64,000 nucleotides of DNA from an uncultured Pseudomonadota bacterium (lineage in GTDB: Bacteria; Oederibacteriota; Muellerivitia; Muellerivitales; Muellerivitaceae), in the NCBI GenBank assembly GCA_963836235.1, contig CAWIIP010000002.1, forward strand, positions 139,454 to 203,453, read 5' to 3'. The notes below the pieces were generated by a model. The model ran no database searches. It was given only the letters and a program-made list of their open reading frames with translations, and was not told the origin of the DNA. Both the position numbers and the translations under genes were made by a program. Each line of letters starts with the position of its first letter. Positions within the stretch are counted from its first letter, which is position 1. Positions 15,413-62,793 of this stretch are shown here, piece by piece.

Positions 15413-15426
15413 AGCTAACAGTCGAA

Positions 15427-45161: not shown

Positions 45162-45770
45162 TCAATTATTAGGCGTTTGATGAGGTTTAATTCTGGTCCT
45201 GGCCCGGTCCGCTCTCGGAGGCTGATTGTGTTTGCGGGAGTTCAGCGCCCACCCGATTCCTGTCTTATAATACCGCCACAGCCAGTGCTGGATGAGACCG
45301 CCTCTCCTCCCTAGCTTTTTTGCCACATCATTAGTTTTCATCCCTTCCGCCAGGCAGGCAAGCGCCTGCAACTTTTCCCTCACCCACGGTCGTTCCTCTT
45401 TTGCCAAAAAGGACTTAATCTCCTGCAAGTTCATATTCCGCACAAGGCGAGGATGGAAAAATCCCTTGTCTGTCCAATTCTTTGATAGCGCATTGAGAGG
45501 GACCTTTCGTTCAAGGATCCTCGTTATTGAAGAAAAGGAACCGGCAAGAAATACCGAGAGTTTCAATAGCACGTGAACAGATTGGACTCCTTCTTGCTCC
45601 CATCGTCCCCATTCCTCAAGCGTGCATCCACAATTGTCGGCAGCTTGTTCTTGGGTAAGGTTCTTTTCCAAGCGGAGTTCCCTGATTACTTCCCCGGTTT
45701 TTCGCTGAACATCTTTCCGTGTGAGCTTTACCCTCGCGGTGAGCGATTTTTGGGAGTCGAATCCTTTCAT
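45162..45770 (-). CDS. HTH(XRE)-HTH protein, diverged paralog of 29543..30118
   Basis: 202 aa; same architecture and ~60% aa identity (TGEVIRELRLEKNLTQEQAADNCGCTLEEWGRWEQEG ... KLQALACLAEGMKTNDVAKKLG). Confidence 0.5.
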   Translation of the reverse strand: MKGFDSQKSLTARVKLTRKDVQRKTGEVIRELRLEKNLTQEQAADNCGCTLEEWGRWEQEGVQSVHVLLKLSVFLAGSFSSITRILERKVPLNALSKNWTDKGFFHPRLVRNMNLQEIKSFLAKEERPWVREKLQALACLAEGMKTNDVAKKLGRRGGLIQHWLWRYYKTGIGWALNSRKHNQPPRADRARTRIKPHQTPNN

Positions 45771-46090
45771 TTTTCATACTCAATTCTCAACTCTTGAAAG
45801 TAATCTAAAATCCGCCGTTTGATGAGGTTGAGTTCAACGACCTTCAGTTCCCTGCCCAAAAGGCCGACGATTTCCAGCTTGGCGTCCCGGAAGACCATAT
45901 TGAAAGCTAGTTCAAACCATTCGGTTTGTTCTGCGGGGGCAAGGTCTTGGTATGGTTTGTGGAGACGTTTGGGCCAAGGATAATCCATGAGCAGTTCCGG
46001 GCCCAAAAAGCCATTCATGAAATTCGCCACACGGAGGGCGGCGGGATTTTTATTGCTGTGGGGGTTATAAGAACCAGGGGTTTCAGACAT
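45767..46090 (-). CDS. Hypothetical protein
   Basis: 107-aa ORF, 4-nt overlap with downstream gene. Confidence 0.4.
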   Translation of the reverse strand: MSETPGSYNPHSNKNPAALRVANFMNGFLGPELLMDYPWPKRLHKPYQDLAPAEQTEWFELAFNMVFRDAKLEIVGLLGRELKVVELNLIKRRILDYFQELRIEYEK

Positions 46091-46105
46091 GAATATCTCT
46101 CCTCA

Positions 46106-46441
46106 TTAAATCCGCCGTCCGAAAAAGGCCGTTAAGGATGCCCATGAAGCGACCAGGGCAAAGAGCCAAAACCAAAACGGATGAGGTAAGGTCGTAAAGA
46201 CCGATACGGTCCCTGACGAAATGAACCGGCCCAAGACCGAGAAGATGTGGTAGGTGATAATCAGCCTATAGGCCGAAAAGACCAAAAGCACGGCCAAGGC
46301 GATCCCGAATAGTATCCTGACGAAATTCATTCCCGCCAATTTTGAGAAATGGAAAAACCTTTCGAGGTGTTCGTTGTTCATAAGGGCCGACCTTTCAGTC
46401 GGTGGTTCCTCCGAAACGATCCTGCTGTCTGTGTTTTCCAT
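46106..46441 (-). CDS. Small membrane protein (2 TM)
   Basis: Start chosen at MENTDSR; two hydrophobic helices. Confidence 0.4.
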   Translation of the reverse strand: MENTDSRIVSEEPPTERSALMNNEHLERFFHFSKLAGMNFVRILFGIALAVLLVFSAYRLIITYHIFSVLGRFISSGTVSVFTTLPHPFWFWLFALVASWASLTAFFGRRI

Positions 46442-46455
46442 AATCCAATCCTTCC

Positions 46456-46734
46456 TCAATAGTCGATCACTTCTTCCCACCGGCTCACTTTAGACGCGGG
46501 TTCCGCCTCGTGAAAGCCGAGGCCGTTGCACCTGGGGCAATCGGCCCCGCCGGGCAAGACACCTCTGCCCCCGCACGGCTTACAGCTTTCCAACCATATC
46601 GGCTGTTTCCCGCTTCCGTTGCAATCCCCACAAGGGAATTTTCCGGAATAAAATATGCCTTCCAGCCAAAAACCCGGCTCCCCTGGCTCGTCGCCCGTCC
46701 CCCCGCATTTTTGGCAGTCGACTTCGCCTCTCAT
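46456..46734 (-). CDS. Small DnaJ-type zinc-finger protein (four CxxCxGxG repeats)
   Basis: CQKCGGTG, CGDCNGSG, CKPCGGRG, CPRCNGLG. Confidence 0.5.
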   Translation of the reverse strand: MRGEVDCQKCGGTGDEPGEPGFWLEGIFYSGKFPCGDCNGSGKQPIWLESCKPCGGRGVLPGGADCPRCNGLGFHEAEPASKVSRWEEVIDY

Positions 46735-46845
46735 GGTGCCGTCCTGGATTGCATTTTAGGGCCATCCAAAAAAATCCTGAACAGAAAGTCGAATAATTTT
46801 AGACCGGGATACCGCCCCGCCGGCCAGGCCGGCGGGGCGAAAATC

Positions 46846-47214
46846 CTAATACTCGTTGGGGACCATCAGGACAGGTTTACCCTCCTGCATAGCGACGTAA
46901 AACTTCCAGGTTCCCTCCGGGAAATCCGTGAATTCGATCTCCTGCCGCACAATTTCTGGCCGGTCGTCGTCCTCCTTCATCGTAAGGATCGCCTTGGAGG
47001 CTTTGACTTCAAGCGTCCAAAACTGGATTTCCTCCTTCCGGGCATAACTGAAAATGGCGTCGATCAGCCAATAGGCCCCGGCAATCTCCGCCACGGCCTG
47101 GACCCCTTCGGTGTAAATGCCTCCCGTAATGTGCTTGAAGTAGCTCACGCTACCCGTGCTCATGGCAAAAACCTCCTCTATCCTCAACTTCTTTACGGCT
47201 TCTTCCCTGTCCAT
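46846..47214 (-). CDS. Hypothetical protein
   Basis: 122-aa ORF; SD AAGGAG upstream; preceded by structured element A1. Confidence 0.4.
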   Translation of the reverse strand: MDREEAVKKLRIEEVFAMSTGSVSYFKHITGGIYTEGVQAVAEIAGAYWLIDAIFSYARKEEIQFWTLEVKASKAILTMKEDDDRPEIVRQEIEFTDFPEGTWKFYVAMQEGKPVLMVPNEY

Positions 47215-47707
47215 AGATGCTCCTTATCTTTATTTGGGAGGGGCCCCCTCCGGGGGGCGGCCCTCAAAGAATCTGGGCCGCAACACGGAGGCGAGAGAGG
47301 GTTGGTGGGTGGAGATTGAGCCGTGCGAAAGAAGCACCTAGCCAACCCCAGCAAACCGCTTCGGGCAAAGTGCCGAAGGGCGGACGCCGCGGCGGACGCA
47401 TCTAGGCATTTAGCGGCCCTTGCCCCTGGGCCAGACGGTATTTGGCGGCCCAGGGGTGCGATCTATCAGGCCAGCGGCACGATGAGGTTTGCGAACCTTG
47501 AAGCCGTTCGATCTTGGGGGTCCGGGGGGATCTTCCGCCCGGGCTAGGAGAGGGGCGCGGGGAGAGGGGTTTTTCTTTCCCCGAAAATTCCGAGGCCCGG
47601 CATAGGGAAGGTTACACGGCCGCTTTGCGGCCGGCGAACCTTCTTCAAACCCGCCAGGGTGCCGGGCCGAGCAAAACAAAAGGCCCCCCTAAGAGGGCCT
47701 CCGGTCT
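47215..47707. promoter_or_regulatory. GC-rich structured noncoding element A1 (member of repeated family with 48934..49620 and 52236..52760)
   Basis: Shares blocks with A2/A3: cccggagggggcccctccc next to the gene start, gggggtccggggg...ccgcccgggcta, and hairpin GAAGGTTACACGGCCGCTTTGCGGCCGGCGAACCTTC. All ORFs called inside are low-complexity P/G/R translations. Confidence 0.6.
47672..47702 (-). terminator. Rho-independent terminator (minus strand) after gene 47708..48100
   Basis: Hairpin AGGCCCCCCTAAGAGGGCCT followed on the minus strand by a U-run (plus-strand caaaacaaaa). Confidence 0.6.
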
Positions 47708-48100
47708 TCAAGCCGTAGGGTGTGAAGATTTTTCCAAGGGGTGTTTCTTGGAACACTTAGGGCAAAACTTCCCGTCTCTGCCCTCGACGGGCAAGGAATC
47801 CTTCAAGAGAATTTCCGTGTTGCAAACTTGGCACCAAGTGGCGTAGGTATCATCCGAAAGGATTTGAGGAACCAATTTTTTAATAAGGCCCTTCCCTACC
47901 GTGGCCCGGCCAAATTCATAAGCCCAACGGGTGGCGGTGTACTTATCCTTTCCCGGCCAAGTAAGGCGGCGGTATTCGTCTCCCTGGGCGGCGTCCCCTC
48001 CGTCGTCGTCCTCCACCTTGAAAACTTGTAAGCCGGGAATGTCTGACACCACATCGGACAAAACCCCACCTTCCATAAAAATGATAATTTTCGGCATAAC
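47708..48100 (-). CDS. Hypothetical protein with C-terminal zinc ribbon
   Basis: Start at MPKIIIFMEGG with SD AAGGAGG; C-terminal CQVCN...CPKC. Confidence 0.45.
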   Translation of the reverse strand, partial: VMPKIIIFMEGGVLSDVVSDIPGLQVFKVEDDDGGDAAQGDEYRRLTWPGKDKYTATRWAYEFGRATVGKGLIKKLVPQILSDDTYATWCQVCNTEILLKDSLPVEGRDGKFCPKCSKKHPLEKSSHPTA

Positions 48101-48107
48101 GTCCTCC

Positions 48108-48404
48108 TTAAAGTTCGTATTTTTCGGCAAAGTTTGAAAGTGATTCAGCGGAAGCGGCACAAACGTCCAGCGCGCGCGCGGCGGCCAAGCCGACAAGGGC
48201 GCTCCCGCCTTCCTCAAAATCCAGTTTTGAAAATATCGTTTCGGCCTGGTCGGTGAGGTAGTTGTTTAAAGCTCCCGCAACTTCCAAAAGGCCGTGATGG
48301 CTTACGAGAAACGCTAAAACGTCATAAGGCTCGTAAGTCTCAAGGCGGTATTTTTTAAACTCCTTTACGGTTTCTTTTTCCGGCCCTAACAATTTGATTT
48401 CCAT
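48108..48404 (-). CDS. Hypothetical protein
   Basis: 98 aa; SD TAGGAGG 6 nt upstream of ATG. Confidence 0.45.
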   Translation of the reverse strand: MEIKLLGPEKETVKEFKKYRLETYEPYDVLAFLVSHHGLLEVAGALNNYLTDQAETIFSKLDFEEGGSALVGLAAARALDVCAASAESLSNFAEKYEL

Positions 48405-48444
48405 AAATCCTCCTAAAATTTTTCATCCCCAAAGGGGCGATTTC

Positions 48445-48933
48445 TTAAACCAAAAGCCCTGCGGTGCGGAAGGAAAAGTGGCCTTCGTGGGTGACTATCA
48501 AGTGATCATGAACGGTTATCCCCAGGGCACGGGCGGCGGTGATAATTTGGCGGGTCAATTGCTTGTCCCCTTCCGATGGTTCAAGGCTTCCGGCTGGGTG
48601 ATTGTGGGAAAATATGATCCCCGTGGCGTTTAACTCCAAAGCTTTTTTTAGTACCTCTCTTGGATAAACGGCGGTATGGTCCACGGTTCCTTCGCTGTTC
48701 AAAACCGTTTCTAAAACGTGGTTGCGGTGGTCGAGGTACATGGTGACAAAAGCCTCTTTGTCCCTGCCTCCGATGTATTTGGCAAAATAGGCCACTACAT
48801 CATCTGGGCTTGTTACAACCGGGCCTCTCTCGTAATCGGTCCTTGCTTCGGACCATGAAACCGGGGGAACCGTGGGGGGAATTTTGAACATCACTTCCAA
48901 AGGCATTTCTAACTGCTTGATTCTCTTGCTCAT
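48445..48933 (-). CDS. radC: RadC-like JAB/MPN domain protein
   Basis: HNHPAGSLEPSEGD (HNHPSG JAMM motif) and surrounding RadC-family conservation. Confidence 0.8.
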   Translation of the reverse strand: MSKRIKQLEMPLEVMFKIPPTVPPVSWSEARTDYERGPVVTSPDDVVAYFAKYIGGRDKEAFVTMYLDHRNHVLETVLNSEGTVDHTAVYPREVLKKALELNATGIIFSHNHPAGSLEPSEGDKQLTRQIITAARALGITVHDHLIVTHEGHFSFRTAGLLV

Positions 48934-49620
48934 TTTGAACGCTCCGCTTTTTTATTAGAGGAGAGAGCACCCTCCGGGTGCGCCCCCTCAAAAATCCTTG
49001 GGGGCGCATACGGAGCGAGTAAGGTGTTTGTGTTGGGGCAAATCAATGTCGGCGGGTCCTGCGCCTTGGTGTTAGCAGACCGGGAAAATTCCCAAACAGG
49101 TTTTGGGCCGAAAGACGAGGAACGAGGCGTGGCCCGTTTGGGAATTTAGGCGCTGACCGATCCCGGCGGCGATAGCCGCCCGTCGATTTGGTTTGCGTCC
49201 TCTATGTCTTTCGTTTCTGGGGTTGCCAGGGGTCACTGTCCCTTGGCTAGGGTGGGGATATAGGGGAGGGTCTTTTCCCTCCCCCTGGGGGGTCCGGGGG
49301 ATGGCTCGAACGAGCCCGCCGCCCGGGCTAGGGTGGGCACCTGGCCCGTCGCTTTCAAAGCGAGGGCCTCGCAGTGGTGGTGCAAACAGCATTGAAGCTG
49401 TTTGCAAAAGGGTAGGGGTACTTCCCTTCCCTGCTTTAATGATTTTCGAGGCGCGGCAAAGGGAAGGTTACACGGCCAAAGGCCGGCGAACCTTCCTCAA
49501 TCCCGATAGGGGCCGCACCGAGACAAAGAACACCTTAATCGGCTTTTCCCCATACACCTTCCCGACCCTTCTCAAGATAGACGCGTTTCACGTAAAGTGT
49601 AATATGTAGGCCTGGCCCCT
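48934..49620. promoter_or_regulatory. GC-rich structured noncoding element A2 (closest relative of A3)
   Basis: First ~60 nt (ttattagaggagagagcaccctccgggtgcgccccctcaaaaatccttgggggcgcatacggagcga) nearly identical to the start of A3; shared ~100-nt block ggtcact...ctagggtgggg...ggggggtccggggga...cgccgcccgggcta; perfect hairpin GCAAACAGCATTGAAGCTGTTTGC; GAAGGTTACACGGCC...GGCGAACCTTC hairpin. Confidence 0.65.
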
Positions 49621-49812
49621 TTTTCTATGGGGAAACGCCGCCCGGTCTACCGTGTGGAAATTGGAGTCGCGGGGAAAAGTTAATCCATAAAAACCGACGA
49701 ACGAATTTGGATTTTAGTGAGGAGGTTTTTAACTTTGAGGGCCGGCGATTAAAAAATTACACAGGCAAAAGGAGGAAATCTGTCCAGAGGGTCCAAAGCC
49801 CCTTTAATGGAA

Positions 49813-50409
49813 TTACTGTGAGGGTGGGAGAGGGAGAGTTGTGATATTTAATTTTTTATTGACGTATTGAATCCATTTCTCAGCGGAATTTCTTTGGTCA
49901 TCTGTCTGGGCCGTTTGAACAGCCGCATTAAAATATTTTAACGAATCTTGCCACCTATCCTCTTTAGTTAATTTTACTCCATACGAGAAGTAAGAATTAA
50001 AGTTTTCACCACCTTCCAAATTTGAAGAATTGGAAGCTTGGAGGTCGGCATTCATATTTTTCTGGTTAAGTTTATTCCAATCAGAGGTAATGGCGTCTAC
50101 GATTAAAGGAATAAAACCTAATAGGAAACCTGGAACAACATCCAAAACTATCCATCCACCATCAACACCATTACTCAACGAGCTTGTTTGGGTGGTATAT
50201 CCAGGTTTCCTAAATTCAACATTATGAGTTTTGTTAGATTCTAGAGGAACAGAAACTGGGGTAGTTCCCCTTTGCAAACCATCAACATAAACTTCTGCAC
50301 CAGGGGGATTGGAGGAAAATTCAACAGGTTCTGCACCACCTTTAAAGACCGTTGCGCAACCGGTAGAAATAAGGCTGAACACTAACATTAAAGCCATTAA
50401 CTTTTTCAT
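49813..50409 (-). CDS. PEGA-domain lipoprotein
   Basis: Start MKKLMALMLVFSLISTGC (lipobox); PPGAEVYVDGLQRGTTP = PEGA motif. Confidence 0.6.
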   Translation of the reverse strand: MKKLMALMLVFSLISTGCATVFKGGAEPVEFSSNPPGAEVYVDGLQRGTTPVSVPLESNKTHNVEFRKPGYTTQTSSLSNGVDGGWIVLDVVPGFLLGFIPLIVDAITSDWNKLNQKNMNADLQASNSSNLEGGENFNSYFSYGVKLTKEDRWQDSLKYFNAAVQTAQTDDQRNSAEKWIQYVNKKLNITTLPLPPSQ

Positions 50410-50555
50410 AACACTCCGAATGATCAAGCGTCCACTTATTTCATCGAGATATAAGGTTAATTGTCGTGACTACCCTTGGTCAACACAAAAATAGGCTAGG
50501 AGGGGAGGCACTTCCGTTGCACACCATCCTTTTTGCGACAGCCATGTGCAGGTAT

Positions 50556-50873
50556 TTAGGCACTCTTTTTCCCGCGGGCGAGTTCCCTTTCAAATAGAAT
50601 CCGCACCCCGAAAGCGTGAAGAACCTTTTCTAAACTCGAAAGGGTTGGATTTCCCTTCTCGGAAAGCATCGTGTAAAGGGATTCCCTCGCAAGTTGTGTT
50701 TCCTTGGAAAGCTTTTTCATCCCGCCTAGGGCGTCGGCCACGTTCTTCAATGCCTTCAAAAAGTATTTAAAATCTCCGGTTTCCCAAGCGGCGTTTATGT
50801 ATCGGACCCGTGTTTTAAGGTCTTGAAGTTCTTCAAACAAATAACTTTTATGGTCAATCAATCCAAATTTCAT
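50556..50873 (-). CDS. Addiction-module antidote protein, HTH type (HI1420-like)
   Basis: LKALKNVADALGGMKKLSKETQLARESLYTMLSEKGNPTLSSLEKVLHAFGV matches the conserved HI1420-type antidote pattern; 4-nt overlap with upstream toxin gene. Confidence 0.7.
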   Translation of the reverse strand: MKFGLIDHKSYLFEELQDLKTRVRYINAAWETGDFKYFLKALKNVADALGGMKKLSKETQLARESLYTMLSEKGNPTLSSLEKVLHAFGVRILFERELARGKKSA

Positions 50874-51244
50874 TTCACGCTCCCTTTAAAAGCCGCCCAT
50901 AGCTTGGTGGCTTTCTTTGTGTCATTATCCTGATTGTCTTTTTCTCCCCCACAAACCACGACGATGATGGCTCCCTTATGATAGCCGTAATAAACCCGGA
51001 AACCTCTTCCGTAATGAATCCTTAATTCCCAAAGGCCCCCGGTCTTTGGCAGGTCGTGATGATCGCCAAAATTCCCGTCCTCCATCCGGTCAACCGCCAT
51101 CCGTATAAGGTCCTTGGCGGTTTCGTCCTTTAAGCGGCGGTGCCACTCCTTGTATAAAACCTTACCGTCTACCTCCAAATATTTAACTACAAAGGGGTGG
51201 TTTTCCATGCCTGAACCTAGTGTAATATTTATATTACTCATTGT
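50870..51244 (-). CDS. Addiction-module killer protein, RelE/ParE superfamily (HI1419-like)
   Basis: GDHHDLPKTGGLWELRIHYGRGFRVYYGYHKGAIIVVVCGGEKDNQDNDTKKATKLW matches the HI1419-type toxin pattern. Start chosen at MSNINITLG; upstream part of the 172-aa ORF looks non-coding. Confidence 0.65.
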   Translation of the reverse strand, partial: TMSNINITLGSGMENHPFVVKYLEVDGKVLYKEWHRRLKDETAKDLIRMAVDRMEDGNFGDHHDLPKTGGLWELRIHYGRGFRVYYGYHKGAIIVVVCGGEKDNQDNDTKKATKLWAAFKGSVK

Positions 51245-51301
51245 CAAATCTTCCTTTCGAAAACAATCCCGAAAGGGGCCGCACCGAGACAAAGAACACC
51301 C

Positions 51302-51343
51302 CAAAAAAAGCCCCCCGGTTTGAAACCGGGGGGCTTTTCTTCC
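51302..51343. terminator. Bidirectional rho-independent terminator downstream of ardC
   Basis: Hairpin GCCCCCCGGTTTGAAACCGGGGGGC flanked by caaaaaaa (5') and ttttcttcc (3'). Confidence 0.65.
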
Positions 51344-51362
51344 TGAAAGGATGGAGCTGTTA

Positions 51363-52235
51363 TTAAGCGGCTTCCTCCTTCTTTTCAAATTTCACGCCTA
51401 AGATAAAGTCGGCTGCGGATTGGGCGAGTGATGCCGCCCGGAAAATGGCGCGGGTGTCATCCTTTAAAACCTTGATCCAGTTTTGGACATAGGCGGCGTG
51501 TTGGGTGTCGTATTCGTAGCCGACATGCCCAGCCAAGAAAGCCCCGCCTATTTCGGCGACAAGTTCCTCGAAGGCATAATCAACTGAACCGAAAACCAGG
51601 GACTGCTTGCGGTTAAGCCGTTTCGGGTGGCCGCTCCAGTGGGTTAGCTCATGGTAACTCGTGGAAAAAAATTTCTCCTCCGTCTTGAAAGAACGGCGAG
51701 GGGGAAGGTTGATATAGTCCAAAGTCGGGGAGTAAAAAGCCTTGTCGGGGTTTTCTTCAACGATCTTCGCCCCGGATTGGGTGAGGATGCGCTCGGCTTC
51801 CTCGTTCTTGTTGAAAGGCTTTTCCTCGGCGCTCTTGGGCCGCAAGTGGTCGAGTCCCTCGGTTTGGTCCAGGTTGAAAACCGTAAAATATTTTAGGTAT
51901 TTGATAACCTTCTTTTCAAAATCCCCTTCCGCTTTTTCCTCCTTCACCGTCAAGGGCTTGAAGAAAATGACCTCAACCCCCTTGGCCCCGGCCTTGATGT
52001 TGCCTCCCGCTGTTTTGGCCTGTTGGTAGGTGAGCCAAGAGTTACAGGAAAAACCCTGGCGGCTCGCAACCGAGGTAAGCCAAATAACATTCACCCCCCG
52101 GTATGCCTTCCGGGTGGCGGCGTTCTTGGGGAAGTTTCCGGTTTTAATCCAGGGCGTTTCCCAAAAAAGATTTCCTTTCTCCATGTCCTCCAAAATTTGG
52201 TTGGTGATTTTCTCCATCAAATCGTTTGTTTTCAT
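51363..52235 (-). CDS. ardC: ArdC-like antirestriction protein (N-terminal ssDNA-binding domain + C-terminal HExxH zincin domain)
   Basis: N-terminus KAYRGVNVIWLTSVASRQGFSCNSWLTYQQAKTAGGNIKAGAKG matches ArdC-N; C-terminal YHELTHWSGH metalloprotease motif. Confidence 0.75.
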   Translation of the reverse strand: MKTNDLMEKITNQILEDMEKGNLFWETPWIKTGNFPKNAATRKAYRGVNVIWLTSVASRQGFSCNSWLTYQQAKTAGGNIKAGAKGVEVIFFKPLTVKEEKAEGDFEKKVIKYLKYFTVFNLDQTEGLDHLRPKSAEEKPFNKNEEAERILTQSGAKIVEENPDKAFYSPTLDYINLPPRRSFKTEEKFFSTSYHELTHWSGHPKRLNRKQSLVFGSVDYAFEELVAEIGGAFLAGHVGYEYDTQHAAYVQNWIKVLKDDTRAIFRAASLAQSAADFILGVKFEKKEEAA

Positions 52236-53127: not shown

Positions 53128-53547
53128 ATGAATCCAAAGATTGAAGTAGAGAAGTTGAATATCGCCAAGAAAGGACAGCAGGTCGGGACGTTCTCCGCTC
53201 GGGTGGGCTTCGATGGCGGGTGTGAGGTTACTCTACCCGGTATGAGGATCGTCGAGGGGGCCAAAGGGACTTTCGTGGATGTTCCGTCAAGGCAGTTCAA
53301 GGACGTGGGCTTTGTTCCCTTTTACTACTTGAACAAGGCCTTAAGGGATTTAATCACGCATGAGGCGCTGGATGCCTACCGCAAAGCGGTGGCGGAAAAG
53401 GCGGGTGAGAAACCGACGAGTCCGGCGGTGCCGGCGGCCCCTGCAGGGCCCGCAGTTGCGGCGGTAAAGCCGGAAAGTCCAGTGGTTCCCTCTCAAGCGA
53501 AAACGTGGCCACGGAAGGAATGGAAGCCAAACCCGGCAAGGAAATAG
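53128..53547 (+). CDS. SpoVG-like nucleic-acid-binding protein, paralog 1
   Basis: Start at MNPKIEV preceded by SD GGAGGA. FSARVGFDGGCEVTLPGMRIVEGAKGTFVDVPSRQFKDVGFVPFYYLNKALRDLI aligns with SpoVG core ([52 protein letters not shown]). ~250-nt conserved leader at 52840..53127. Confidence 0.6.
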   Translation: MNPKIEVEKLNIAKKGQQVGTFSARVGFDGGCEVTLPGMRIVEGAKGTFVDVPSRQFKDVGFVPFYYLNKALRDLITHEALDAYRKAVAEKAGEKPTSPAVPAAPAGPAVAAVKPESPVVPSQAKTWPRKEWKPNPARK

Positions 53548-53561
53548 AAGATAAAAGAAGG

Positions 53562-53595
53562 GCCCGGGGCCGAGAGGCTCCGGGCTCTTTTTGTT
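53562..53595 (+). terminator. Rho-independent terminator after SpoVG-like gene 1
   Basis: GCCCGGGGCCGAGAGGCTCCGGGC + TCTTTTTGTT. Confidence 0.65.
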
Positions 53596-53645
53596 GAAGG
53601 GGGAAGGTTTGGAGGGGCGTACTACCCCCTCCAACTTTGTCAGTT

Positions 53646-54041
53646 CTAGGGTTTAGGCTGTTTAGCGAAGGTCTTGTCGAACGACCCTTTCCAGCGAATC
53701 CCCTTTACCCGACCTTCCATGATTGCGTCCGCCTTCTCGTCAATTTCTTTGGCGAGTTTGGGACCGGGTTTATAAAATTTCGTTCCATTGTATTCAAAAA
53801 GGAATTTGTTAGATTTACTTCTCAGGCGGGTCTTTTTCGGCAGGTTTGCCTTATTCGGTTTCTTAGGTTTTGATTTCACGATTTTCCCCCCAACCAAGGC
53901 ATCCGCCACGTTTTTGAGGGAAGAAAGAATATGTTTCTTATCCCGCCTGTCGAGGGCGGCGTTTAGATAACCCTTCCTGATTTCAGGGTCTTTTAGTTCC
54001 TTCAAAAGAAATTCATGATGATCGACTGTTCGGCCTTTCAT
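53646..54041 (-). CDS. Protein with HI1420-type antidote-like N-terminus fused to a basic Lys-rich tail
   Basis: KGRTVDHHEFLLKELKDPEIRKGYLNAALDRRDKKHILSSLKNVADALVGG parallels the N-terminus of 50556..50873, but the HTH part is replaced by a K/P-rich region. Confidence 0.4.
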   Translation of the reverse strand: MKGRTVDHHEFLLKELKDPEIRKGYLNAALDRRDKKHILSSLKNVADALVGGKIVKSKPKKPNKANLPKKTRLRSKSNKFLFEYNGTKFYKPGPKLAKEIDEKADAIMEGRVKGIRWKGSFDKTFAKQPKP

Positions 54042-54080
54042 ATTATCCTCCGTTGGAAAGCTCCTAAGGCGCAAACACCT

Positions 54081-54419
54081 TTAAAAGTTTACGGTTAAGT
54101 CAACGTTCTTAACCAGATCGGAAGCCGTCACCCCCAAGGCCTTGGCAATAAGGTCAATTATTCCTAAGGTCGGGCTATAGGTGCTGTTCTCGTTTTCAAT
54201 ATTCAAAACCGTCCGGCTGGAAACACCCGCCTTCTCGGCCAATTCAACTTGGGTCAATTTCTTCTTGTTCCGCAACTTAATGAGGTTCCAACCAAGGGAA
54301 ACCCTTGGGCTCGGATTCTTCAAAGAGGCGTAAAGGTCGGGCCGTCTTTTCTTAAGGTGTTTAATGTCTTCTTCAATGGAAACTCCCGGCAAAACAATTT
54401 TTTTAAAATGTGTTTTCAT
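54081..54419 (-). CDS. XRE-family HTH protein (antitoxin-like)
   Basis: LIKLRNKKKLTQVELAEKAGVSSRTVLNIEN = HTH_XRE. Confidence 0.7.
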   Translation of the reverse strand: MKTHFKKIVLPGVSIEEDIKHLKKRRPDLYASLKNPSPRVSLGWNLIKLRNKKKLTQVELAEKAGVSSRTVLNIENENSTYSPTLGIIDLIAKALGVTASDLVKNVDLTVNF

Positions 54420-54707
54420 TTATTCCCCCTCCAATGCTTTTATTTCAGCTAAGTATTTTTGAATCGCCTCTTTTTCTTTTTCGCGCGGCTCCCCCGCCCT
54501 GGTGATATGGGCGGTCAAAATGAAAAGGGCGTGCAACTTAAAAGACAAATAATAATTCACCACCAAAACCCTTTTTTCTCCCTTTAAAATTTTATCAAAA
54601 AAACCAGAACGGTCTTTAGCATAAGCAAGCCCCAAAACCTGGAACCTTAAAAGGTCAAGCTCTTCCCGGTCCATAATGTTGTCCCGGAAGTTCCGAAAAT
54701 ACGGCAT
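54420..54707 (-). CDS. Putative toxin partner of the downstream XRE antitoxin (RelE/HigB-like?)
   Basis: 95 aa; directly abuts the HTH gene in HigBA-like order; sequence assignment weak. Confidence 0.4.
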   Translation of the reverse strand: MPYFRNFRDNIMDREELDLLRFQVLGLAYAKDRSGFFDKILKGEKRVLVVNYYLSFKLHALFILTAHITRAGEPREKEKEAIQKYLAEIKALEGE

Positions 54708-54748
54708 AAATCCATAAAAACCTCACTTCTTATTATGTGTAGTATCCT

Positions 54749-54991
54749 TCATATAGTCAAGTACGACAAACTGCGCTCGATAAAATCCTCATAATCCGAA
54801 TCAAAAACATCCTGGCACTTGAGGCAGTTTCCGGTTTCTTCGTCTAACGGGAGGGCGTTGCTTCCGCACGAAAAACAAAACCCCTTGCAAGCGGGGCAGG
54901 GTGTCCCCTCTTTTTCGTCGTCCCATCCGTGGCCACATTTCCAAGCGGAAAAAGGAAAATGGAGTCCTGTTTTAGAAATTTCGTTTATCAA
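54749..54991 (-). CDS. Small Cys-rich (zinc-binding) protein
   Basis: 80 aa with CGHGW, CPACKGFCFSCG, CLKC clusters. Confidence 0.4.
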   Translation of the reverse strand: MINEISKTGLHFPFSAWKCGHGWDDEKEGTPCPACKGFCFSCGSNALPLDEETGNCLKCQDVFDSDYEDFIERSLSYLTI

Positions 54992-55098
54992 ATTTTTTCT
55001 CCTTAAATCCTTTCTTCTTTGATTAGTTCCAAAAACCTATCGATTTCCTGGTCGGGAACCCTGAAAAGTTCCTCTATGTTTTTGATCTCTTCGTTCAT

Positions 55099-55560
55099 TT
55101 CCCCTGCTCCTTCGCTTTTTTTTCGGGGCTTTTAAGTTCCTGCCCCCACCGGCACAAGCCGGCGGTGGGGGCAGGAACTTGAAGGGGATTCCGCAGGAAA
55201 AATTTGGTTTCAATGCGACAGCAGCGCCGACCTTGCCGACCATGACAATTGCGATCTTCAATTGGCGTGGGCGGTGCTTTGCAGTCGGCGCATTTGAAAG
55301 GAATTAAATTTTCTTAGGAATAGACCATTGGCAAAGCGGGGGCACCTCGCCCTTTGCCCACAAGGCAAAGGGCGGCGTCTTGGTTGTGCAAACAGCAATA
55401 AGCTGTTTGCACATAGGGGCGGGTTGGCCCCGGATGGTTAAATGGATGAAGGTTACACGCCCGCGAAATCAGCGGTCGGCGAACCTTCTTAGGTATTTTT
55501 CGAAGGGACTTAGGCTTTCAACAAGGCCTTAAAACCAAAACCGCGAACGGCGATCCGAAA
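55099..55560. promoter_or_regulatory. Structured noncoding element B1 (related to 59504..59800; contains sub-modules also found in A2)
   Basis: 17-bp hairpin TTCCTGCCCCCACCGGC-ACAA-GCCGGCGGTGGGGGCAGGAA; conserved block gacaattgcgatcttcaattggcgtgggcggtgctttgcagtcggcgcat; hairpin GCAAACAGCAATAAGCTGTTTGC; GAAGGTTACACGCCC...GGCGAACCTTC. A 31-aa micro-ORF (55003..55098, minus) sits at its edge. Confidence 0.6.
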
Positions 55561-55863
55561 CCTCAAGTCAAAGATAAAGAATGCCAACACAGATTCATAA
55601 GGAATCAGCAACCGGCCTGGCCCTCCGGGACCCCGGGCAAAATCAGCCCGGCGGCCTCGAACGCTGTCGGCCTCCTCCTCCGTCGTCGCCTTTCGCGATT
55701 CGTCGCTTAAAGCAATTTTCTAACAGGGCTACAGGTCATCCGCTCCGCTGCTTCCCTTCCGCAAAGGAACATACAAACTTTTTACCGCGCCCCCCTACTC
55801 GTTCGTAGAGGGGGGCGCAGTAAAAAGGCGCGAAACCCCAAAATAAAAATGAGGAGGATTCGA

Positions 55864-56280
55864 ATGAATCCAAAGATTGAAGTTGTGAAGTTGAATATCG
55901 CCAGGAAGGGACACCAGGTCGGGACGTTCTCCGTCAAGGTTGGGTTCGATGGCGGGTGTGAAGTGACGCTACCGGGGATGAGGATCGTCGAGGGTTCCAA
56001 AGGAACCTTCGTGGATCTGCCGGCGAGAAAGTTCAAGGAAGGGGGCTTTGTTCCCTTCTACTACTTGAACAAGTCTTTGAAGGATTTGATCACCAAGGAA
56101 GGGCTGGAGAATTACCGAAAGGCCGGGACGGGGAAGCAACCGGAGAAGGCGGCATTCGCGGTCCCTGCGGCCGCAAGGCCAGCGGCGGCCAGCGCGACCA
56201 TGGTTTCAAAACCAACGGTTCCTGCTCCGGCGAAAACGTGGCCACGGAAGGAGTGGAAACCGAATTCATTTAAAAAATAA
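55864..56280 (+). CDS. SpoVG-like nucleic-acid-binding protein, paralog 2
   Basis: MNPKIEVVKLNIARKGHQVGTFSVKVGFDGGCEVTLPGMRIVEGSKGTFVDLPARKF... ~85% identical to paralog 1 over the N-terminal 90 aa; same SD and conserved leader (55630..55863). Confidence 0.6.
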   Translation: MNPKIEVVKLNIARKGHQVGTFSVKVGFDGGCEVTLPGMRIVEGSKGTFVDLPARKFKEGGFVPFYYLNKSLKDLITKEGLENYRKAGTGKQPEKAAFAVPAAARPAAASATMVSKPTVPAPAKTWPRKEWKPNSFKK

Positions 56281-56293
56281 AAGAAGGAAAATG

Positions 56294-56327
56294 GCCCGGC
56301 TCCTAGAGGAGTCGGGCTTTTTTTGTT
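56294..56327 (+). terminator. Rho-independent terminator after SpoVG-like gene 2
   Basis: GCCCGGCTCCTAGAGGAGTCGGGC + TTTTTTTGTTT. Confidence 0.65.
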
Positions 56328-56380
56328 TCGCGGGGGGAGGTTTGGAGGGGCGTCCTACCCTCTTCTAGCCTTTTTGGGAT

Positions 56381-56581
56381 TTATTCGGGGTGAACTTCAA
56401 TTCCCTTCACGGCCCCGCTTTTCATTTCCTTATAACGAACTATGATTTCTTTATGCTCTTTGGCGGTTGGTTTCCTGAACTTTAAAGGGGCGTTTTTGTA
56501 AACAGCCTCAACCAATTCAGCCACCAGCCTCCCAACCTTGGGGACTCTTGGCCCGTGGGCCGTCTTTTTCATCAGATTCAA
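56381..56581 (-). CDS. Small protein, possible ParD/RelB-like antitoxin (C-terminal EMKSG.VK motif)
   Basis: 66 aa; C-terminus VRYKEMKSGAVKGIEV shares a motif with 57725..57976. Confidence 0.3.
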   Translation of the reverse strand: MNLMKKTAHGPRVPKVGRLVAELVEAVYKNAPLKFRKPTAKEHKEIIVRYKEMKSGAVKGIEVHPE

Positions 56582-56772
56582 ACTTTAGACAATCGGCGTT
56601 CAACTGAGCGCGAGGGCGGCATAAGTTCCTTTTTGCAAACACTTTTTATGAACTCATCCGTCTCTTTTCGATGCTTTTGATTAAACTTTACAATTCCCAG
56701 ACGGTTCATCTCGTTGGAAACTCTCTGTTTCCATTTTCTGACTTCCGTCAAACTCTTAGGTTCCTTCATCAC
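56578..56772 (-). CDS. Small hypothetical protein
   Basis: 64-aa ORF overlapping the downstream small gene by 4 nt. Confidence 0.3.
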   Translation of the reverse strand: MMKEPKSLTEVRKWKQRVSNEMNRLGIVKFNQKHRKETDEFIKSVCKKELMPPSRSVERRLSKV

Positions 56773-56802
56773 CTAACACCTCCAAAGGGGATGGCAATTT
56801 AA

Positions 56803-57156
56803 TTAATGTCCTGCCGCTGGAACCAATCCCGTCAATTTACCCGCCATTTCGAAAAGAAGCTTTTTTGTTTGGGAGGGGTGAGTTTTTATGCCTTCTGCCC
56901 AATAGCCAACCGCCGCCGGAATCGGGTTCTTACCTTGCTCCCATTTCTTTACCGTTTCCGAACTAACAGCCATGATTCGGGCGAATTGGGGTTGGGAAAC
57001 CTTCAGAATATTTCTCGCGTCCTTTATATCCTGGCCTGTAGTGCGGATGAAAAGGTTTTCGACCTTAACTTTGGCGGGTTTCCCTTGGGCAAATTTGAGA
57101 CCTTCCCTAAGGCTTTCCCTGAACAATTTCTTTTCTTCCTTTGTTTTTTTCATCAT
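56803..57156 (-). CDS. HTH (XRE/HigA-like) antitoxin
   Basis: ARNILKVSQPQFARIMAVSSETVKKWEQGKNPIPAAV = HTH of HigA-type antitoxins; 4-nt overlap with upstream toxin gene. Confidence 0.65.
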   Translation of the reverse strand: MMKKTKEEKKLFRESLREGLKFAQGKPAKVKVENLFIRTTGQDIKDARNILKVSQPQFARIMAVSSETVKKWEQGKNPIPAAVGYWAEGIKTHPSQTKKLLFEMAGKLTGLVPAAGH

Positions 57157-57602
57157 CGATCCCCTCCCTCTTTCTGGTAGGCTTTTTTTATGCCTTCCGC
57201 GGTTTTTTTTAGTTCCTTTAAATCATTGGCGTCTAAATTTAATTTATTCCTGTGGTCGTAAATTGAGAACAGGTAAATATCATGTTGAACACGAAAAAGA
57301 AGGTAAGTGAATCTAAAGCCTCCGCTTTTCCCGATGTTCCGGCTGGGTGATTTTGCCCGGCCTTTTATCCATCCTCCCGTACCTTTGATTTCGTCAAGCT
57401 TTCCGGATTCAACTTCCAACCTGATACTGTCACGTATTTCCTCGTGTAATTTGGGCTCCAACCTCACCAATTTTTTAAGGTCGCTCTCATATTGAAGGAG
57501 CTTAATGAGGCGGTATTTGATTTTCGAAACGTCAATTTCTTCCACGAGTACCCTAATCTTTATGATATGGTATCTTATACCATATGTCATATAACAGGTC
57601 AA
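57153..57602 (-). CDS. RelE/HigB-family toxin
   Basis: GKSGGFRFTYLLFRVQHDIYLFSIYDHRNKLNLDANDLKELKK matches the RelE/HigB C-terminal core. Confidence 0.6.
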   Translation of the reverse strand: MTCYMTYGIRYHIIKIRVLVEEIDVSKIKYRLIKLLQYESDLKKLVRLEPKLHEEIRDSIRLEVESGKLDEIKGTGGWIKGRAKSPSRNIGKSGGFRFTYLLFRVQHDIYLFSIYDHRNKLNLDANDLKELKKTAEGIKKAYQKEGGDR

Positions 57603-57724
57603 CCAATATATTATGAAAACCCGGATACAAAGCCTCCGGCGGGGCCATTCCTTTACTTGCCCTTTTCATCGGGAGAGCCTTGTAGACCCTAGGGCCGCTG
57701 TTCTCCTTCGAGGACCATTAGCTC

Positions 57725-57976
57725 TTAAAGTTTCTCCAAGTGTTTGATGAGGTCTTGAGAAGAAATCGTCTTGACCTTGCCGCTTTTCATTTCGGCCACC
57801 CCACGGCGAATCTCTGCCGCTTCCTTGGGTGAAGGCTTGCTAAACTTCCAGCCCTTGTGTTCAACGATATCATTTGATTTGTTACCCACGGCGGTATCTT
57901 TCAGGCCGGACTTTTTCATCGGGAATCCAAGTCCCTTCCCGGTCGGCTTTTGCGGCGGCTTTAACAATCTTCGCAT
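57725..57976 (-). CDS. Small basic protein with ParD/RelB-like C-terminal motif
   Basis: C-terminus IRRGVAEMKSGKVKTISSQDLIKHLEKL. Confidence 0.3.
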   Translation of the reverse strand: MRRLLKPPQKPTGKGLGFPMKKSGLKDTAVGNKSNDIVEHKGWKFSKPSPKEAAEIRRGVAEMKSGKVKTISSQDLIKHLEKL

Positions 57977-58057
57977 GGGTTTTAGCGTCGGGCTTGGTGA
58001 GTTTAAGCCCCATGTGTTCCACCACTACCTTTTTAATCAAAATCCCCTCCAACATTT

Positions 58058-58375
58058 TTACTTCTTCTTTCCAAATAGGCGCCGGTACTCCTCGGCGGAA
58101 ATTCCCTTGCGTTTCTTTCCGTAGCCTTCCGTAACCCTGGCCCCTCCGTGGAAGATTCCGTAACCAAGTTTCTTTTTCGCCATGGGTTGAATGGCCTCAA
58201 GGAAATCCTGCCACTTTGGATCGTGGGCCTTCTGGCCCATTTCGATGGCGGCCTGAACGGCCCCACGGGCGAAGGATGAGAAGTCCTTCACGCCCAAAGC
58301 CTTAAGGGACTCTTCCCAATACTTCGCCTGGGAAGATTTAGCTTTGAAACGGATCATCACGAATTTTCTTTTCAT
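58058..58375 (-). CDS. Hypothetical protein
   Basis: 105-aa basic protein; no motif recognised. Confidence 0.35.
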   Translation of the reverse strand: MKRKFVMIRFKAKSSQAKYWEESLKALGVKDFSSFARGAVQAAIEMGQKAHDPKWQDFLEAIQPMAKKKLGYGIFHGGARVTEGYGKKRKGISAEEYRRLFGKKK

Positions 58376-58441
58376 CCAAAGCCTTTCCTAATAAGAACCT
58401 GGCGAATAACTCCAGCCTACCCGCGACTAAAATATTTAAAC

Positions 58442-58843
58442 TTATCGAATCCACTTCACCTTAATGTCTTTTTCAACGGATTTGAATTCTTTGTCCCCGG
58501 TCACGAGGTGGGCGTTTCTCAATTTTGCCGTCGCGGCGGCGTATGCGTCGGCGTAAGACATCTTATGAGTCCCTTTGAATCGCGCCGCAACAAGGGTCAA
58601 TTCCCTACCCACGTCCAAAACCTGGATATCCATTTCCGCAAGCGTTTTTTCATACAGCATCGCTCTTTCTTCCCCGCCCTCCCTAAAAGCCGTGTACCAA
58701 ACCTCTCCCCAATTCACGATACAAAGGAAAGCCTCGGCGTGGCCGTCCGCGATTTCATTTAAAACGGAAACAACGACTTCCTTGCCCTCTTCCCCTTCCA
58801 AATAGGCCAAAAGGGCGTGGGCGTCCAAAACGTAATGTTTCAA
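58442..58843 (-). CDS. vapC: PIN-domain toxin VapC
   Basis: 133 aa; VLDAHALLAYL... and acidic residues in PIN spacing; overlaps antitoxin by 4 nt. Confidence 0.8.
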   Translation of the reverse strand: MKHYVLDAHALLAYLEGEEGKEVVVSVLNEIADGHAEAFLCIVNWGEVWYTAFREGGEERAMLYEKTLAEMDIQVLDVGRELTLVAARFKGTHKMSYADAYAAATAKLRNAHLVTGDKEFKSVEKDIKVKWIR

Positions 58844-59070
58844 AGCTCGCGCTCAGCTTTCTTTTCTTCCGCCAAAAGCTTTAAAAGCTTGCCCTTGGTC
58901 CCGAGAATCCCGCAGTTCTTCCTTATCAAATCCTTGGTCATGGGAACCATGCGGATCTCCCCGTCTTTCTCAAAAAATTTGACGGAAGTCCCCTTCTTGA
59001 TTCCGAATTTTTCCCTGAATTCAGCCGGAATGACTACTTGGCCTTTTTCGGAAACGTGTGTAATCAGCAT
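58840..59070 (-). CDS. vapB: AbrB/SpoVT-type antitoxin VapB
   Basis: Start MLITHVSEKGQVVIPAEFREKFGIKKGTSV (swapped-hairpin AbrB-like domain) with SD GGGAGG. Confidence 0.7.
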   Translation of the reverse strand: MLITHVSEKGQVVIPAEFREKFGIKKGTSVKFFEKDGEIRMVPMTKDLIRKNCGILGTKGKLLKLLAEEKKAEREL

Positions 59071-59194
59071 AAAAACCTCCCAAAAGTAAAACATATTTAC
59101 TATGTAAAACTTATTTATAAGGTACAACTTTATTGAACCGTAGTCAAATAAAGACTAATTGCCGGGTACAAAGCCCCCGGCGGGGCCGTTCCTC

Positions 59195-59503
59195 TTACTT
59201 GCCCTTTTTCACCGGGAGGGCCTTGTAGACCTTCTCGGCTTCGGGCAGAACCTCGTCGTTGAGGTTGTTGAAGGGGTAGTAGCACTTGATGAATTCAGGC
59301 TTGCCACCTTGCTCCTTCGCTTGCTTGACCTCGTGGATTGCGGAGTCCACTTTCAACCCCTTATCCGTCTGGACTAGCCGGTAGTTCGGTAGGGTGATAA
59401 GCGGCTCACCGTCCACCGACACCGTGACCTTGAAAAATGCCAGGGTCTTGGTGTCCTCCTTCTTGGTTTTTTTCATGTCCTTCACTTCGATTTGCAGTCC
59501 CAT
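59195..59503 (-). CDS. SpoVG-like protein, divergent paralog 3
   Basis: Start MGLQIEVKDMKK with SD AAGGAG. LAFFKVTVSVDGEPLITLPNYRLVQTDKGLKVDSAIHEVKQ...FIKCYYPFNN...AEKVYKAL aligns position-by-position with paralogs 1 and 2. Confidence 0.45.
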   Translation of the reverse strand: MGLQIEVKDMKKTKKEDTKTLAFFKVTVSVDGEPLITLPNYRLVQTDKGLKVDSAIHEVKQAKEQGGKPEFIKCYYPFNNLNDEVLPEAEKVYKALPVKKGK

Positions 59504-59800
59504 GACTTGCTCCTTATTTTTATTATTGCCTGGGGCCTTCGGCCTCTTTTTTGCGGGACTTTTAAATTTCCGGCCCCGCCGGCACAAGGCCGGCGGCGGG
59601 GCTGGAAATTAAGAAGGGGATTCCATCTTGGGAATTTATTCACCAAGCGATAGCGGCGCCGACCCGATGTTTTTTATCGCCCTTGGCCGAAGGCCAACGG
59701 GTAGGCCTCACATGACAATCGCGGGTTTCGATTGGCGTGGGAGGTGCCTCGCAGTCGGCGCATCTTTAAAAAATAAATTTTCAAAGGAATCTTCACGTAT
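59504..59800. promoter_or_regulatory. Structured noncoding element B2
   Basis: Hairpin TTCCGGCCCCGCCGGC-ACAA-GGCCGGCGGCGGGGCTGGAA with compensatory changes relative to B1; conserved block gacaatcgcgggtttcgattggcgtgggaggtgcctcgcagtcggcgcat. Confidence 0.6.
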
Positions 59801-62778: not shown

Positions 62779-62793
62779 GTTAAGGGTTACATT

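Follow-up and report, generated by a model that had tools for sequence, protein, structure and literature searches.

How did a block of small anti-restriction and toxin-antitoxin (TA) genes come to lie in the chromosome of an uncultured bacterium, and is it the part of a conjugative element that enters a new host first? These questions are raised by a gene array at positions 45,162 to 59,800 of a 64,000-nt stretch of contig CAWIIP010000002.1 (assembly GCA_963836235.1). We call this whole stretch the window; coordinates refer to it throughout, and features lie on its minus strand unless marked (+). An initial annotation, made from the sequence and its open reading frames (ORFs), had described the array as a leading-region-like anti-defense and addiction island. 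Part of that description stood: an anti-restriction and addiction island of mobile origin is borne out, but its position in a leading region is not established, no origin of transfer (oriT) having been named. Our preferred reading, to which we assign a probability of roughly 70%, treats the array as an establishment and addiction module, one that belongs to a family of integrative mobilizable or conjugative elements, was recently exchanged between species, and is embedded here in a rearranged defense and anti-defense island without transfer genes.

Gene content of the array and its relatives in other genomes

The first finding concerns what the array encodes (Table 1). The ArdC-like anti-restriction protein and the RadC-like JAB protein of the initial annotation are both recognized by Pfam, and ArdC additionally matches the R388 ArdC structures 6SNA and 6I89 over its full length (E=5e-58, residues 5-289), with a HELTH sequence in its translation that fits the HExxH motif. 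At least four type II TA pairs had also been claimed; judging from family matches and conservation in related loci (which carry L numbers here), two pairs are firm and two are probable. The HI1419/HI1420-type pair exceeds the cut-offs for both partners (PF05973, 31.7 bits against 23.9; PF21716, 53.8 bits against 27), its genes overlap by 4 nt, and it is kept in L003, L004, L013, and L020, while VapBC has homologues of 85-91% identity in L007 and L010. For the proposed XRE-toxin pair, the XRE helix-turn-helix (HTH) is confirmed but its 95-aa partner (54420-54707) matches no family, yet the two are conserved as a pair (74%) in L007 and L010. The supposed HigBA-like pair resembles RelE and MqsA/NadS-like HTH proteins, but both partners fall short of their cut-offs (PF06296, 22.9 bits, 1e-4, cut-off 27; MqsA family, 33.3 bits, 3e-8, cut-off 61.8). 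The ParD-like fragments did not hold up: the ORFs at 56381-56581, 56578-56772, and 57725-57976 have no Pfam or NCBIfam match, ParD and ribbon-helix-helix families included. Enrichment in anti-defense and TA genes is provided by ArdC and these pairs; SSB, PsiB, and orphan methyltransferases (MTases) are absent.

In the reading that we prefer, entry and establishment proteins—ArdC, the RadC-like JAB protein, DUF6876, zinc-ribbon proteins, and SpoVG-like nucleic-acid binders—would protect incoming DNA, ArdC acting as a single-stranded DNA (ssDNA)-binding metalloprotease that would defeat restriction. The ardC, radC, and DUF6876 genes would form separate expression units, each behind a ~380-nt structured leader (leader A), whose 3' end would pair the ribosome-binding site (RBS) with a CUCUCC tract and keep translation off until the structure is remodeled. 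The TA pairs, two firm and two probable, would stabilize the island or might neutralize TA systems of the host or of rivals.

The second finding is that the array has moved recently. Relatives were found with a DNA pattern derived from conserved leader A, which returned 14 loci in genome assemblies. Nearly all are metagenome-assembled genomes (MAGs) that come from a single soil survey and belong to candidate division FCPU426; one MAG is labeled "uncultured proteobacterium." The match of the genome scan in L015 (Nitrospirae) was rejected as a chance pattern match that holds no leader A. Near-identical copies of the array (97-99.9% nucleotide identity) occur in four other assemblies (L012 with L008, L016, L020/L021, and L026). 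In the "uncultured proteobacterium" MAG, the adjacent 8-kb blocks L012 and L008 match window positions 48444-59359 at 97-99.5%, and the L008 array abuts homologues of VanY, a His-phosphatase, and RibD whose protein identity to those at window positions 13522-16317 is 68-81%. A near-identical array beside diverged housekeeping proteins argues for recent exchange between species, with a different insertion point. The same MAG carries a second copy (L016) on a 16.6-kb contig (CAVYRH010000017.1) that may be a circular form, next to a serine recombinase 75% identical to that of the window; homologues of this recombinase (75-81%) immediately adjoin leader A and the array in both L016 and L006. The copies also differ structurally, by presence or absence of the segment 49538-50553 that holds the PEGA gene, of the HTH gene, and of 53.6-58.4 kb. 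The PEGA segment is a gap in the alignments of L008, L016, L020, and L021, the last two being further near-identical variants that come, with L026, from ENA, NCBI, and JGI assemblies; the HTH gene is missing from L020, and L021 does not reach that far, while L026 lacks 53.6-58.4 kb. Neither PLSDB plasmids nor E. coli genomes gave a megablast match to the region. On our preferred reading, the element family circulates among uncultured soil bacteria of, or near, candidate division FCPU426.

The third finding is a link to DNA transfer. Starting from 3329 ArdC homologues (E<=1e-20), we found ArdC linked to a type IV coupling protein (T4CP) on three contigs, L002, L003, and L019. In the closest ArdC relatives whose contigs could be used (85% and 67% identity), ardC follows a TraG/TrwB-type T4CP gene of the same strand at a distance of 6-8 kb. 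A 49% identical relative from an NCBI MAG likewise lies 6-8 kb downstream of such a T4CP, in a compact island of ~12 kb composed of T4CP, a partner protein, three tyrosine recombinases, and ArdC. L003 has the gene order of the window—ArdC, RadC, HI1420 pair, DUF6876, zinc ribbon, membrane protein—and also encodes ParA and ParB. All three T4CP loci encode a companion protein of 268-297 aa with the motif RTPDGYFE...FVLEYE (L002 1708-2601, L003 4878-5684, L019 3418-4254), directly after the T4CP in L002 and L019, and a shortened copy stands behind leader A in L004 (1385-1891). A profile of this companion had no match in PDB or Pfam; we regard the protein as a possible relaxase or accessory factor. 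DUF6876 homologues occur on 41 PLSDB plasmids, 26 of which are predicted to be conjugative or mobilizable, and an Acetobacter DUF6876 gene adjoins a gene for a ParB-domain protein. As far as gene neighborhoods can tell, the relatives tie the array to transmissible elements without placing it relative to an oriT, and because they carry a coupling protein we take the element family to be mobilizable or conjugative.

Other mobile DNA is present in the related loci as well. "Recombinase in trio" units, made of three tyrosine recombinases, are present in L003 (10761-14043), L005 (640-3922), L017 (1589-4715), and L019 (5339-8602), where they interrupt ardC twice and radC once and lie just upstream of ardC once, which suggests that the arrays are a preferred target of these units.

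Could the array instead be a set of early anti-restriction genes of a prophage or phage satellite? ArdC-like, RadC-like, Gp49, and SpoVG-like proteins are also known from phages, a serine recombinase is present, and related loci hold genes for thymidine hypermodification (a 5-hydroxymethyldeoxyuridine (5-hmdU) DNA kinase and Nmad2). In the 8-kb blocks around leader A in FCPU426 MAGs (L004-L017), the neighboring ORFs comprise these two as well as a thymidylate synthase, a ThsB-like TIR protein, and a Peptidase_S24, which point to DNA hypermodification and defense genes near some copies. Against a phage origin, the family scans of the window turned up no gene family for capsid, terminase, tail, or lysis proteins, a search of 2.9 million viral contigs with the leader pattern was negative, none of the small proteins could be placed in a PHROG family, and the relatives carry T4CP and ParAB. 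A phage origin is very improbable on this evidence.

Structured leaders upstream of the key genes

Leader A is non-coding and occurs three times in the window, directly upstream of the DUF6876 gene, radC, and ardC, and nowhere else in the 64 kb. Together with the related loci there are 21 distinct copies, most often followed by radC and otherwise by ardC, DUF6876, a DUF3560-like gene, the shortened homologue of the T4CP partner, or one of two small ORFs. Their consensus structure consists of a multi-branched domain of ~300 nt, with a long-range closing helix and internal hairpins, followed by a 3' hairpin. This structure is supported by 94.2% paired cells (86.1% in shuffles), by 20 pairs that change on both sides (12.6 in shuffles), and by a covariation score of 0.208, which compares with 0.080 in shuffles, was reached by 0 of 500 of them, and exceeds all slid controls (<=0.099); one helix of 11 pairs covaries at each pair. 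Rfam gave nothing at gathering score in the window, and its chance-level matches at E<=5 all fall outside the three leader A copies. L018, a more distant contig, shows just one end of the leader ahead of an ardC of 52% identity: its positions 1498-1583 match model positions 292-372 (E=2e-6), which comprise the 3' hairpin and the platform. From this partial copy, the expression-platform end would seem to be more ancient, or more widely distributed, than the complete leader.

Is leader A an element of the mRNA, or does it act as ssDNA on the transferred strand? An invariant CUCUCC(U) tract lies 10-13 nt upstream of the RBS, and 13 of 14 minimum-energy RNA folds pair the Shine-Dalgarno sequence with it. 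The position of the tract and its predicted pairing with the RBS favor an mRNA leader. A count of 44 G-U against 14 A-C pairs also points to the sense strand, with a bias from the way in which the structure was derived. A promoter scan of leader A found no sigma-70-like (-35/-10) boxes.

These features bear on the stricter proposal that the array is the true leading region of a functional conjugative or mobilizable element that enters first as ssDNA. The plus strand would then be the transferred template, with the oriT below 45.1 kb, and the structured elements would be Frpo-type ssDNA promoters that fire before second-strand synthesis. The composition does fit published islands (anti-restriction, TA, and small unknown genes on one strand; PMC11541004), the relatives carry T4CP, each of the key genes follows a structured element of its own that starts just after a terminator-like hairpin, and leader A adopts its structure on the template strand equally well or marginally better. 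However, leader A is multi-branched rather than one long hairpin and has no -35/-10 match, looking Frpo-like in neither sequence nor shape, and its invariant 3' tract complements the Shine-Dalgarno sequence, which is meaningful only in sense-strand RNA. Separation of the genes by structured elements and terminators, as initially annotated, is half right: the structured elements are real and repeated, but terminator-like sites are as frequent as in shuffled sequence (31 against 29.9), as are promoter-like sites (9 against 9.7). Similarly, about 26 of 28 credible genes do lie on the minus strand, but this is not distinctive, as the whole window is biased alike (among ORFs of 100 aa or more in two stretches to the left, 19 of 21 and 16 of 18 are on the minus strand, and GC skew is negative across the window), and two conserved plus-strand SpoVG-like genes had been overlooked. 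Finally, oriT, relaxase, and T4CP were not found in the island, housekeeping genes lie on both sides, and SSB, PsiB, and an orphan methylase are missing. We consider a strict leading region unlikely.

Leader A is not the only repeated leader. Leader B lies ahead of the SpoVG-like genes, the first of which is preceded by a conserved, hairpin-bearing leader at 52868-53130. The SpoVG-like locus is duplicated (78% nucleotide identity, second copy 55778-56363), both copies have a strong RBS, and the second protein has homologues (68%) in L007 and L010. Leader C has two copies (Table 1); the second precedes the gene of a 102-aa protein (59195-59503), possibly another SpoVG-like gene and then the third. 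We tentatively propose, at odds somewhat below even, that leaders A, B, and C represent an undescribed class of structured cis-element for establishment genes of mobile elements, switched on at entry. Leader A would silence ardC, radC, and DUF6876 in the resident state and release them in a new cell, either as an mRNA leader whose RBS is unmasked, perhaps via the SpoVG-like nucleic-acid binders, or as a template-strand ssDNA structure.

Two smaller repeats were also seen. A short element with a nested hairpin (GGAAGGTT-CGCCGGCC...GGCCG-AACCTTCC) is repeated at 47588-47675, 49444-49534, and 51264-51300 with 80-97% identity. It stands ~100-150 nt ahead of leader A copies 1 and 2 and occurs immediately before the Gp49 toxin gene as well. 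In L012, a perfect 38-bp inverted repeat (722-759 and 869-906), like the end of a MITE or insertion sequence (IS), truncates a SpoVG-like gene exactly where similarity to the window ends (window position 59359).

Chromosomal setting, borders, and remaining genes

The window is chromosomal: positions 1-23 kb are filled by SecA, LigA, a riboflavin operon, NAD kinase, and an ABC transporter, and nth, a housekeeping endonuclease III gene read from its translation, lies at ~62753-63427 (+), beyond the far edge of the island. Between these flanks the island spans ~39 kb (~23-62.7 kb) and is a mosaic of uneven G+C content (40-63%), which besides the array contains TPR and beta-lactamase-fold proteins, NYN and SPFH proteins, DUF6161, and a secreted protein. 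A direct repeat of ~920 bp, whose two copies are identical save one 51-nt indel and one poly-C length, brackets a unit of 23.85 kb (36906-60756) that holds the array and runs from a truncated Ppl gene to just past the array. The 329-aa ORF 36834-37823 corresponds to the N-terminal third of a Ppl-type defense protein (PADLOC 1.9e-52, profile positions 4-305 of 894), cut at the repeat junction. Campbell-type insertion, a rearrangement mediated by an IS, and an artefact of assembly are all conceivable origins of the repeat. Exact-sequence look-ups of SecA and of a 245-aa protein, made to extend the view past the window, returned no record. The serine recombinase at 24374-25210 was considered as the recombinase of an element end, but no att sites were identified and the borders of the unit are now the 920-bp repeat; a scan for a tRNA as integration site found none within the window.

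Several points weigh against our preferred reading. First, Pfam finds no relaxase, T4CP, type IV secretion system (T4SS), or ParAB among window ORFs of at least 150 aa and the island ORFs, and tblastn with the T4CP, partner, ParA, and ParB of the relatives finds no pseudogene remnants in the window. No recognizable oriT or nic-like site was named in the island, no oriT model existing for this lineage. Second, the T4CP link comes from three contigs, and the 8-kb blocks around the other copies have no strong match to a conjugation family among the 25 top families listed. Third, since the unit is bracketed by the 920-bp repeat and Ppl is cut, its present borders are rearrangement breakpoints rather than natural element ends. 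Fourth, the opposite strand of leader A folds as well (-61.05 against -54.58 kcal/mol), so that structure alone cannot separate RNA from template-strand ssDNA, and sequestration of the Shine-Dalgarno sequence is a prediction from folding. For the initial annotation, a lack of conjugation or mobilization genes nearby would have told against its reading, and this objection half applies: the scans found none in the window, and housekeeping genes flank the island on both sides. Relatives have T4CP. With no transfer genes here, the module in this genome is probably a remnant or is transferred in trans.

A static chromosomal cassette array or defense island, integron-like and unconnected to DNA transfer, would also fit the chromosomal location beside restriction-modification (R-M) and Ppl defense genes, and there is a superficial likeness to sedentary chromosomal integrons. 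However, the window has no IntI-type tyrosine recombinase, the attC pattern has 2 loose matches (1.7 in shuffles) and none with a stem, the repeats are ~380 nt long, upstream of genes, and coupled to their RBS, and copies that are nearly identical are found in a genome whose housekeeping genes have diverged, and more than once per MAG. We give this reading almost no credence.

How does the array relate to the neighboring type III R-M system, 3 kb away, against which the small proteins had been suggested to act? The S1/P1 nuclease follows the array in L020 (81% nucleotide identity), L026 (90% aa identity), and the more distant L018 (38% aa identity), and in L020 and L018 it is followed by a different R-M system. 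An R-M system that varies behind a conserved array and nuclease argues that it is variable cargo and not the target of the anti-restriction genes; from this synteny, the type III system is probably cargo of the array's own element, which makes the suggested target unlikely. As the nuclease is a conserved companion of the array, the island reaches past position 45,162, where the initial annotation had it begin.

The small proteins have proved harder to interpret. The three Cys-rich ORFs noted initially are present and have homologues elsewhere, those of the zinc-ribbon protein at 46456-46734 lying behind DUF6876 in L003 (54%) and L006 (65%). The predicted AF2 model of DUF6876 has a pLDDT of 94, and its sole structural match is PDB 2r41, an entry without a function. 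Searches of the small ORFs against PHROGs and NCBIfam gave nothing useful and no small protein was given a function; the 142-aa protein (53646-54074) matches no family, nor does the 105-aa protein (58058-58375) in Pfam, NCBIfam, or PHROGs. Their conservation beside radC or DUF6876 in several variants nevertheless indicates that most small ORFs are real genes that travel with the array, and we hypothesize an anti-defense role for them.

Elsewhere in the island, the HTH_31 and HTH_23 regulator has a paralogue at 29543-30118 (67% identical, 75% at the nucleotide level over 468 nt); this pair and the serine recombinase hint that the island contains a related element a second time, as an older copy. 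The GH5 cellulase gene (33031-36303) has 57-63% G+C in a window of ~50% and contains a tandem duplication of 219 nt (34006-34224 and 34228-34446, 94% identical).

Table 1. Features of the array and its surroundings, in window coordinates
Feature	Position	Strand	Evidence and remarks
Serine recombinase	24374-25210	+	Pfam; other edge of the island
Direct repeat ~920 bp, left copy	35985-36905		IS 3' end, GH5 upstream region, GH5 codons 1-106
Type III R-M, res; mod	37823-40489; 40489-42672	-	Pfam; PADLOC MTase_III 4e-118, REase_III 3e-21
S1/P1 nuclease	43992-45128	-	Pfam 2e-63; signal-peptide-like N terminus; just downstream of array
HTH_31 and HTH_23 regulator	45162-45770	-	Pfam; variable component, missing from L020
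107-aa protein	45767-46090	-	No Pfam or PHROG match; homologues only in near-identical copies L020, L026
Small membrane protein	46106-46480	-	Partner of zinc-ribbon gene; hydrophobic stretches in translation; L003 37%, L006 29%
Zinc-ribbon protein	46456-46734	-	Four CxxC pairs (8 Cys, DnaJ-CXXCXGXG-like); Pfam 1.8e-5, below cut-off
DUF6876 protein	46846-47214	-	Pfam 1.9e-29; acidic, alpha/beta fold
Leader A copy 1	47215-47600	-	nhmmer E=1.4e-61; most divergent; directly upstream of DUF6876 gene
130-aa protein	47708-48100	-	C-terminal CxxC...CxxC zinc ribbon; L017 45%; near-identical in L026 (94.6% aa)
98-aa acidic protein	48108-48404	-	Just downstream of radC; L016 98%, L017 74%; no Pfam or PHROG family
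RadC-like JAB domain protein	48445-48933	-	Pfam RadC 2.9e-41
Leader A copy 2	48937-49317	-	nhmmer E=1.6e-99; directly upstream of radC
PEGA-domain lipoprotein	49813-50427	-	Pfam; within ~1-kb segment 49538-50553
HI1419/HI1420-type TA: Gp49/HigB-type toxin; HI1420-type antitoxin	50870-51241; 50556-50873	-	Pfam 1.7e-7; 1.8e-14
ArdC	51363-52235	-	Pfam ArdcN 3e-33 (N-terminal ssDNA-binding domain), MPTase-PolyVal 4e-44 (C-terminal zincin metalloprotease)
Leader A copy 3	52242-52687	-	nhmmer E=2.5e-102; 66-nt insert hairpin; directly upstream of ardC
SpoVG-like protein 1	53131-53547	+	Pfam SpoVG 3e-4, below cut-off; RBS GAGGAGG
142-aa protein	53646-54074	-	N terminus resembles HI1420-type antitoxin by eye; partial homologues in L003
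Putative TA: XRE; upstream 95-aa partner	54081-54419; 54420-54707	-	Pfam HTH_3 3.6e-13 for XRE
80-aa protein, 7 Cys	54749-54991	-	L008 89%, L017 61%, L005 51%; directly after radC in relatives
Leader C copy 1	55117-55311	-	21-bp GC-rich hairpin and A-run; just upstream of RBS of 31-codon ORF
SpoVG-like protein 2	55849-56280	+	Pfam 1.3e-4; best PDB matches are SpoVG (E=0.04)
Putative TA: RelE-like toxin; MqsA/NadS-like HTH antitoxin	57153-57602; 56803-57156	-	Both below cut-off
105-aa basic protein	58058-58375	-	N terminus ribbon-helix-helix-like by eye only; found only in near-identical copy L012
VapBC: PIN toxin; upstream MazE/AbrB antitoxin	58442-58843; 58840-59127	-	Pfam 3e-20; 5e-12
Leader C copy 2	59547-59781	-	Upstream of 102-aa protein 59195-59503
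Direct repeat ~920 bp, right copy	60757-61730		IS 3' end, GH5 upstream region, GH5 codons 1-106
DDE_Tnp_1_4 transposase (IS)	61324-62703	-	Pfam 3e-132; island edge

Comparison with known systems

A close published parallel is with the leading-region anti-defense islands of conjugative plasmids and integrative and conjugative elements (Samuel et al. 2024, PMC11541004), which share with the array an anti-restriction cluster, complete and orphan TA systems, small uncharacterized genes, a near-uniform strand, and dedicated structured elements upstream of some genes. The array differs from those islands in that oriT and transfer genes are lacking, as are SSB, PsiB, an anti-CRISPR, and an orphan MTase. 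Its upstream elements resemble neither Frpo nor ssi and have no -35/-10, and its host is an uncultured candidate-phylum bacterium. The concept of an anti-defense and establishment island would thereby widen from plasmids of cultured Proteobacteria and Firmicutes to an uncultured soil phylum, in which recent DNA flow between species can be traced. It would also supply conserved, co-transferred anti-defense candidates, namely DUF6876, the three Cys-rich proteins, and the 98-aa and 107-aa proteins.

At the level of single proteins, ArdC of the IncW plasmids R388 and pSa (6SNA, 6I89) has the same two-domain architecture, a full-length match, and the HExxH motif. The similarity is moderate, however, and here the gene is chromosomal and stands behind a 380-nt leader, the ardC genes of its relatives being repeatedly hit by "recombinase in trio." A different parallel is offered by CP4-type elements of E. 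coli, which carry antirestriction-RadC-TA arrays (yfjX-yfjY-yfjZ-ypjF and yeeS-yeeT-yeeU-yeeV). These also combine anti-restriction, a RadC-like JAB protein, small genes, and a TA pair in a co-oriented block, and they are likewise degenerate integrated elements without transfer genes; they differ in having ArdB/KlcA where the array has ArdC, and in their TA families. We know of no comparable structured leaders in CP4-type arrays.

With regard to control, reports on the pLS20 plasmid family (PMC8708921, PMC6294495) describe establishment genes expressed from an ssDNA promoter or behind a long leader with processive antitermination. Both systems would place establishment genes of conjugative elements under special leader-based control, but no conAn-type factor was identified here and no sequence relation is expected. 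Leader A itself is a well-supported structured element without an Rfam match, tied to establishment genes in an uncultured phylum, and being common to ardC, radC, and DUF6876 it offers a testable handle on the timing of establishment genes outside the F/Frpo paradigm. In mobile DNA, structured elements of other kinds precede genes for RadC, anti-restriction proteins, ssDNA-binding proteins, and integrases, among them Frpo and the radC and STAXI motifs, the latter two reportedly described by Weinberg et al. in 2010, and for all three it is debated whether they function as RNA or as ssDNA. Leader A is much larger than these (~380 nt, multi-helix), and the tract at its end complements the Shine-Dalgarno sequence. 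If the class that we tentatively propose is real, leader A would be the functional counterpart of Frpo and the radC motif.

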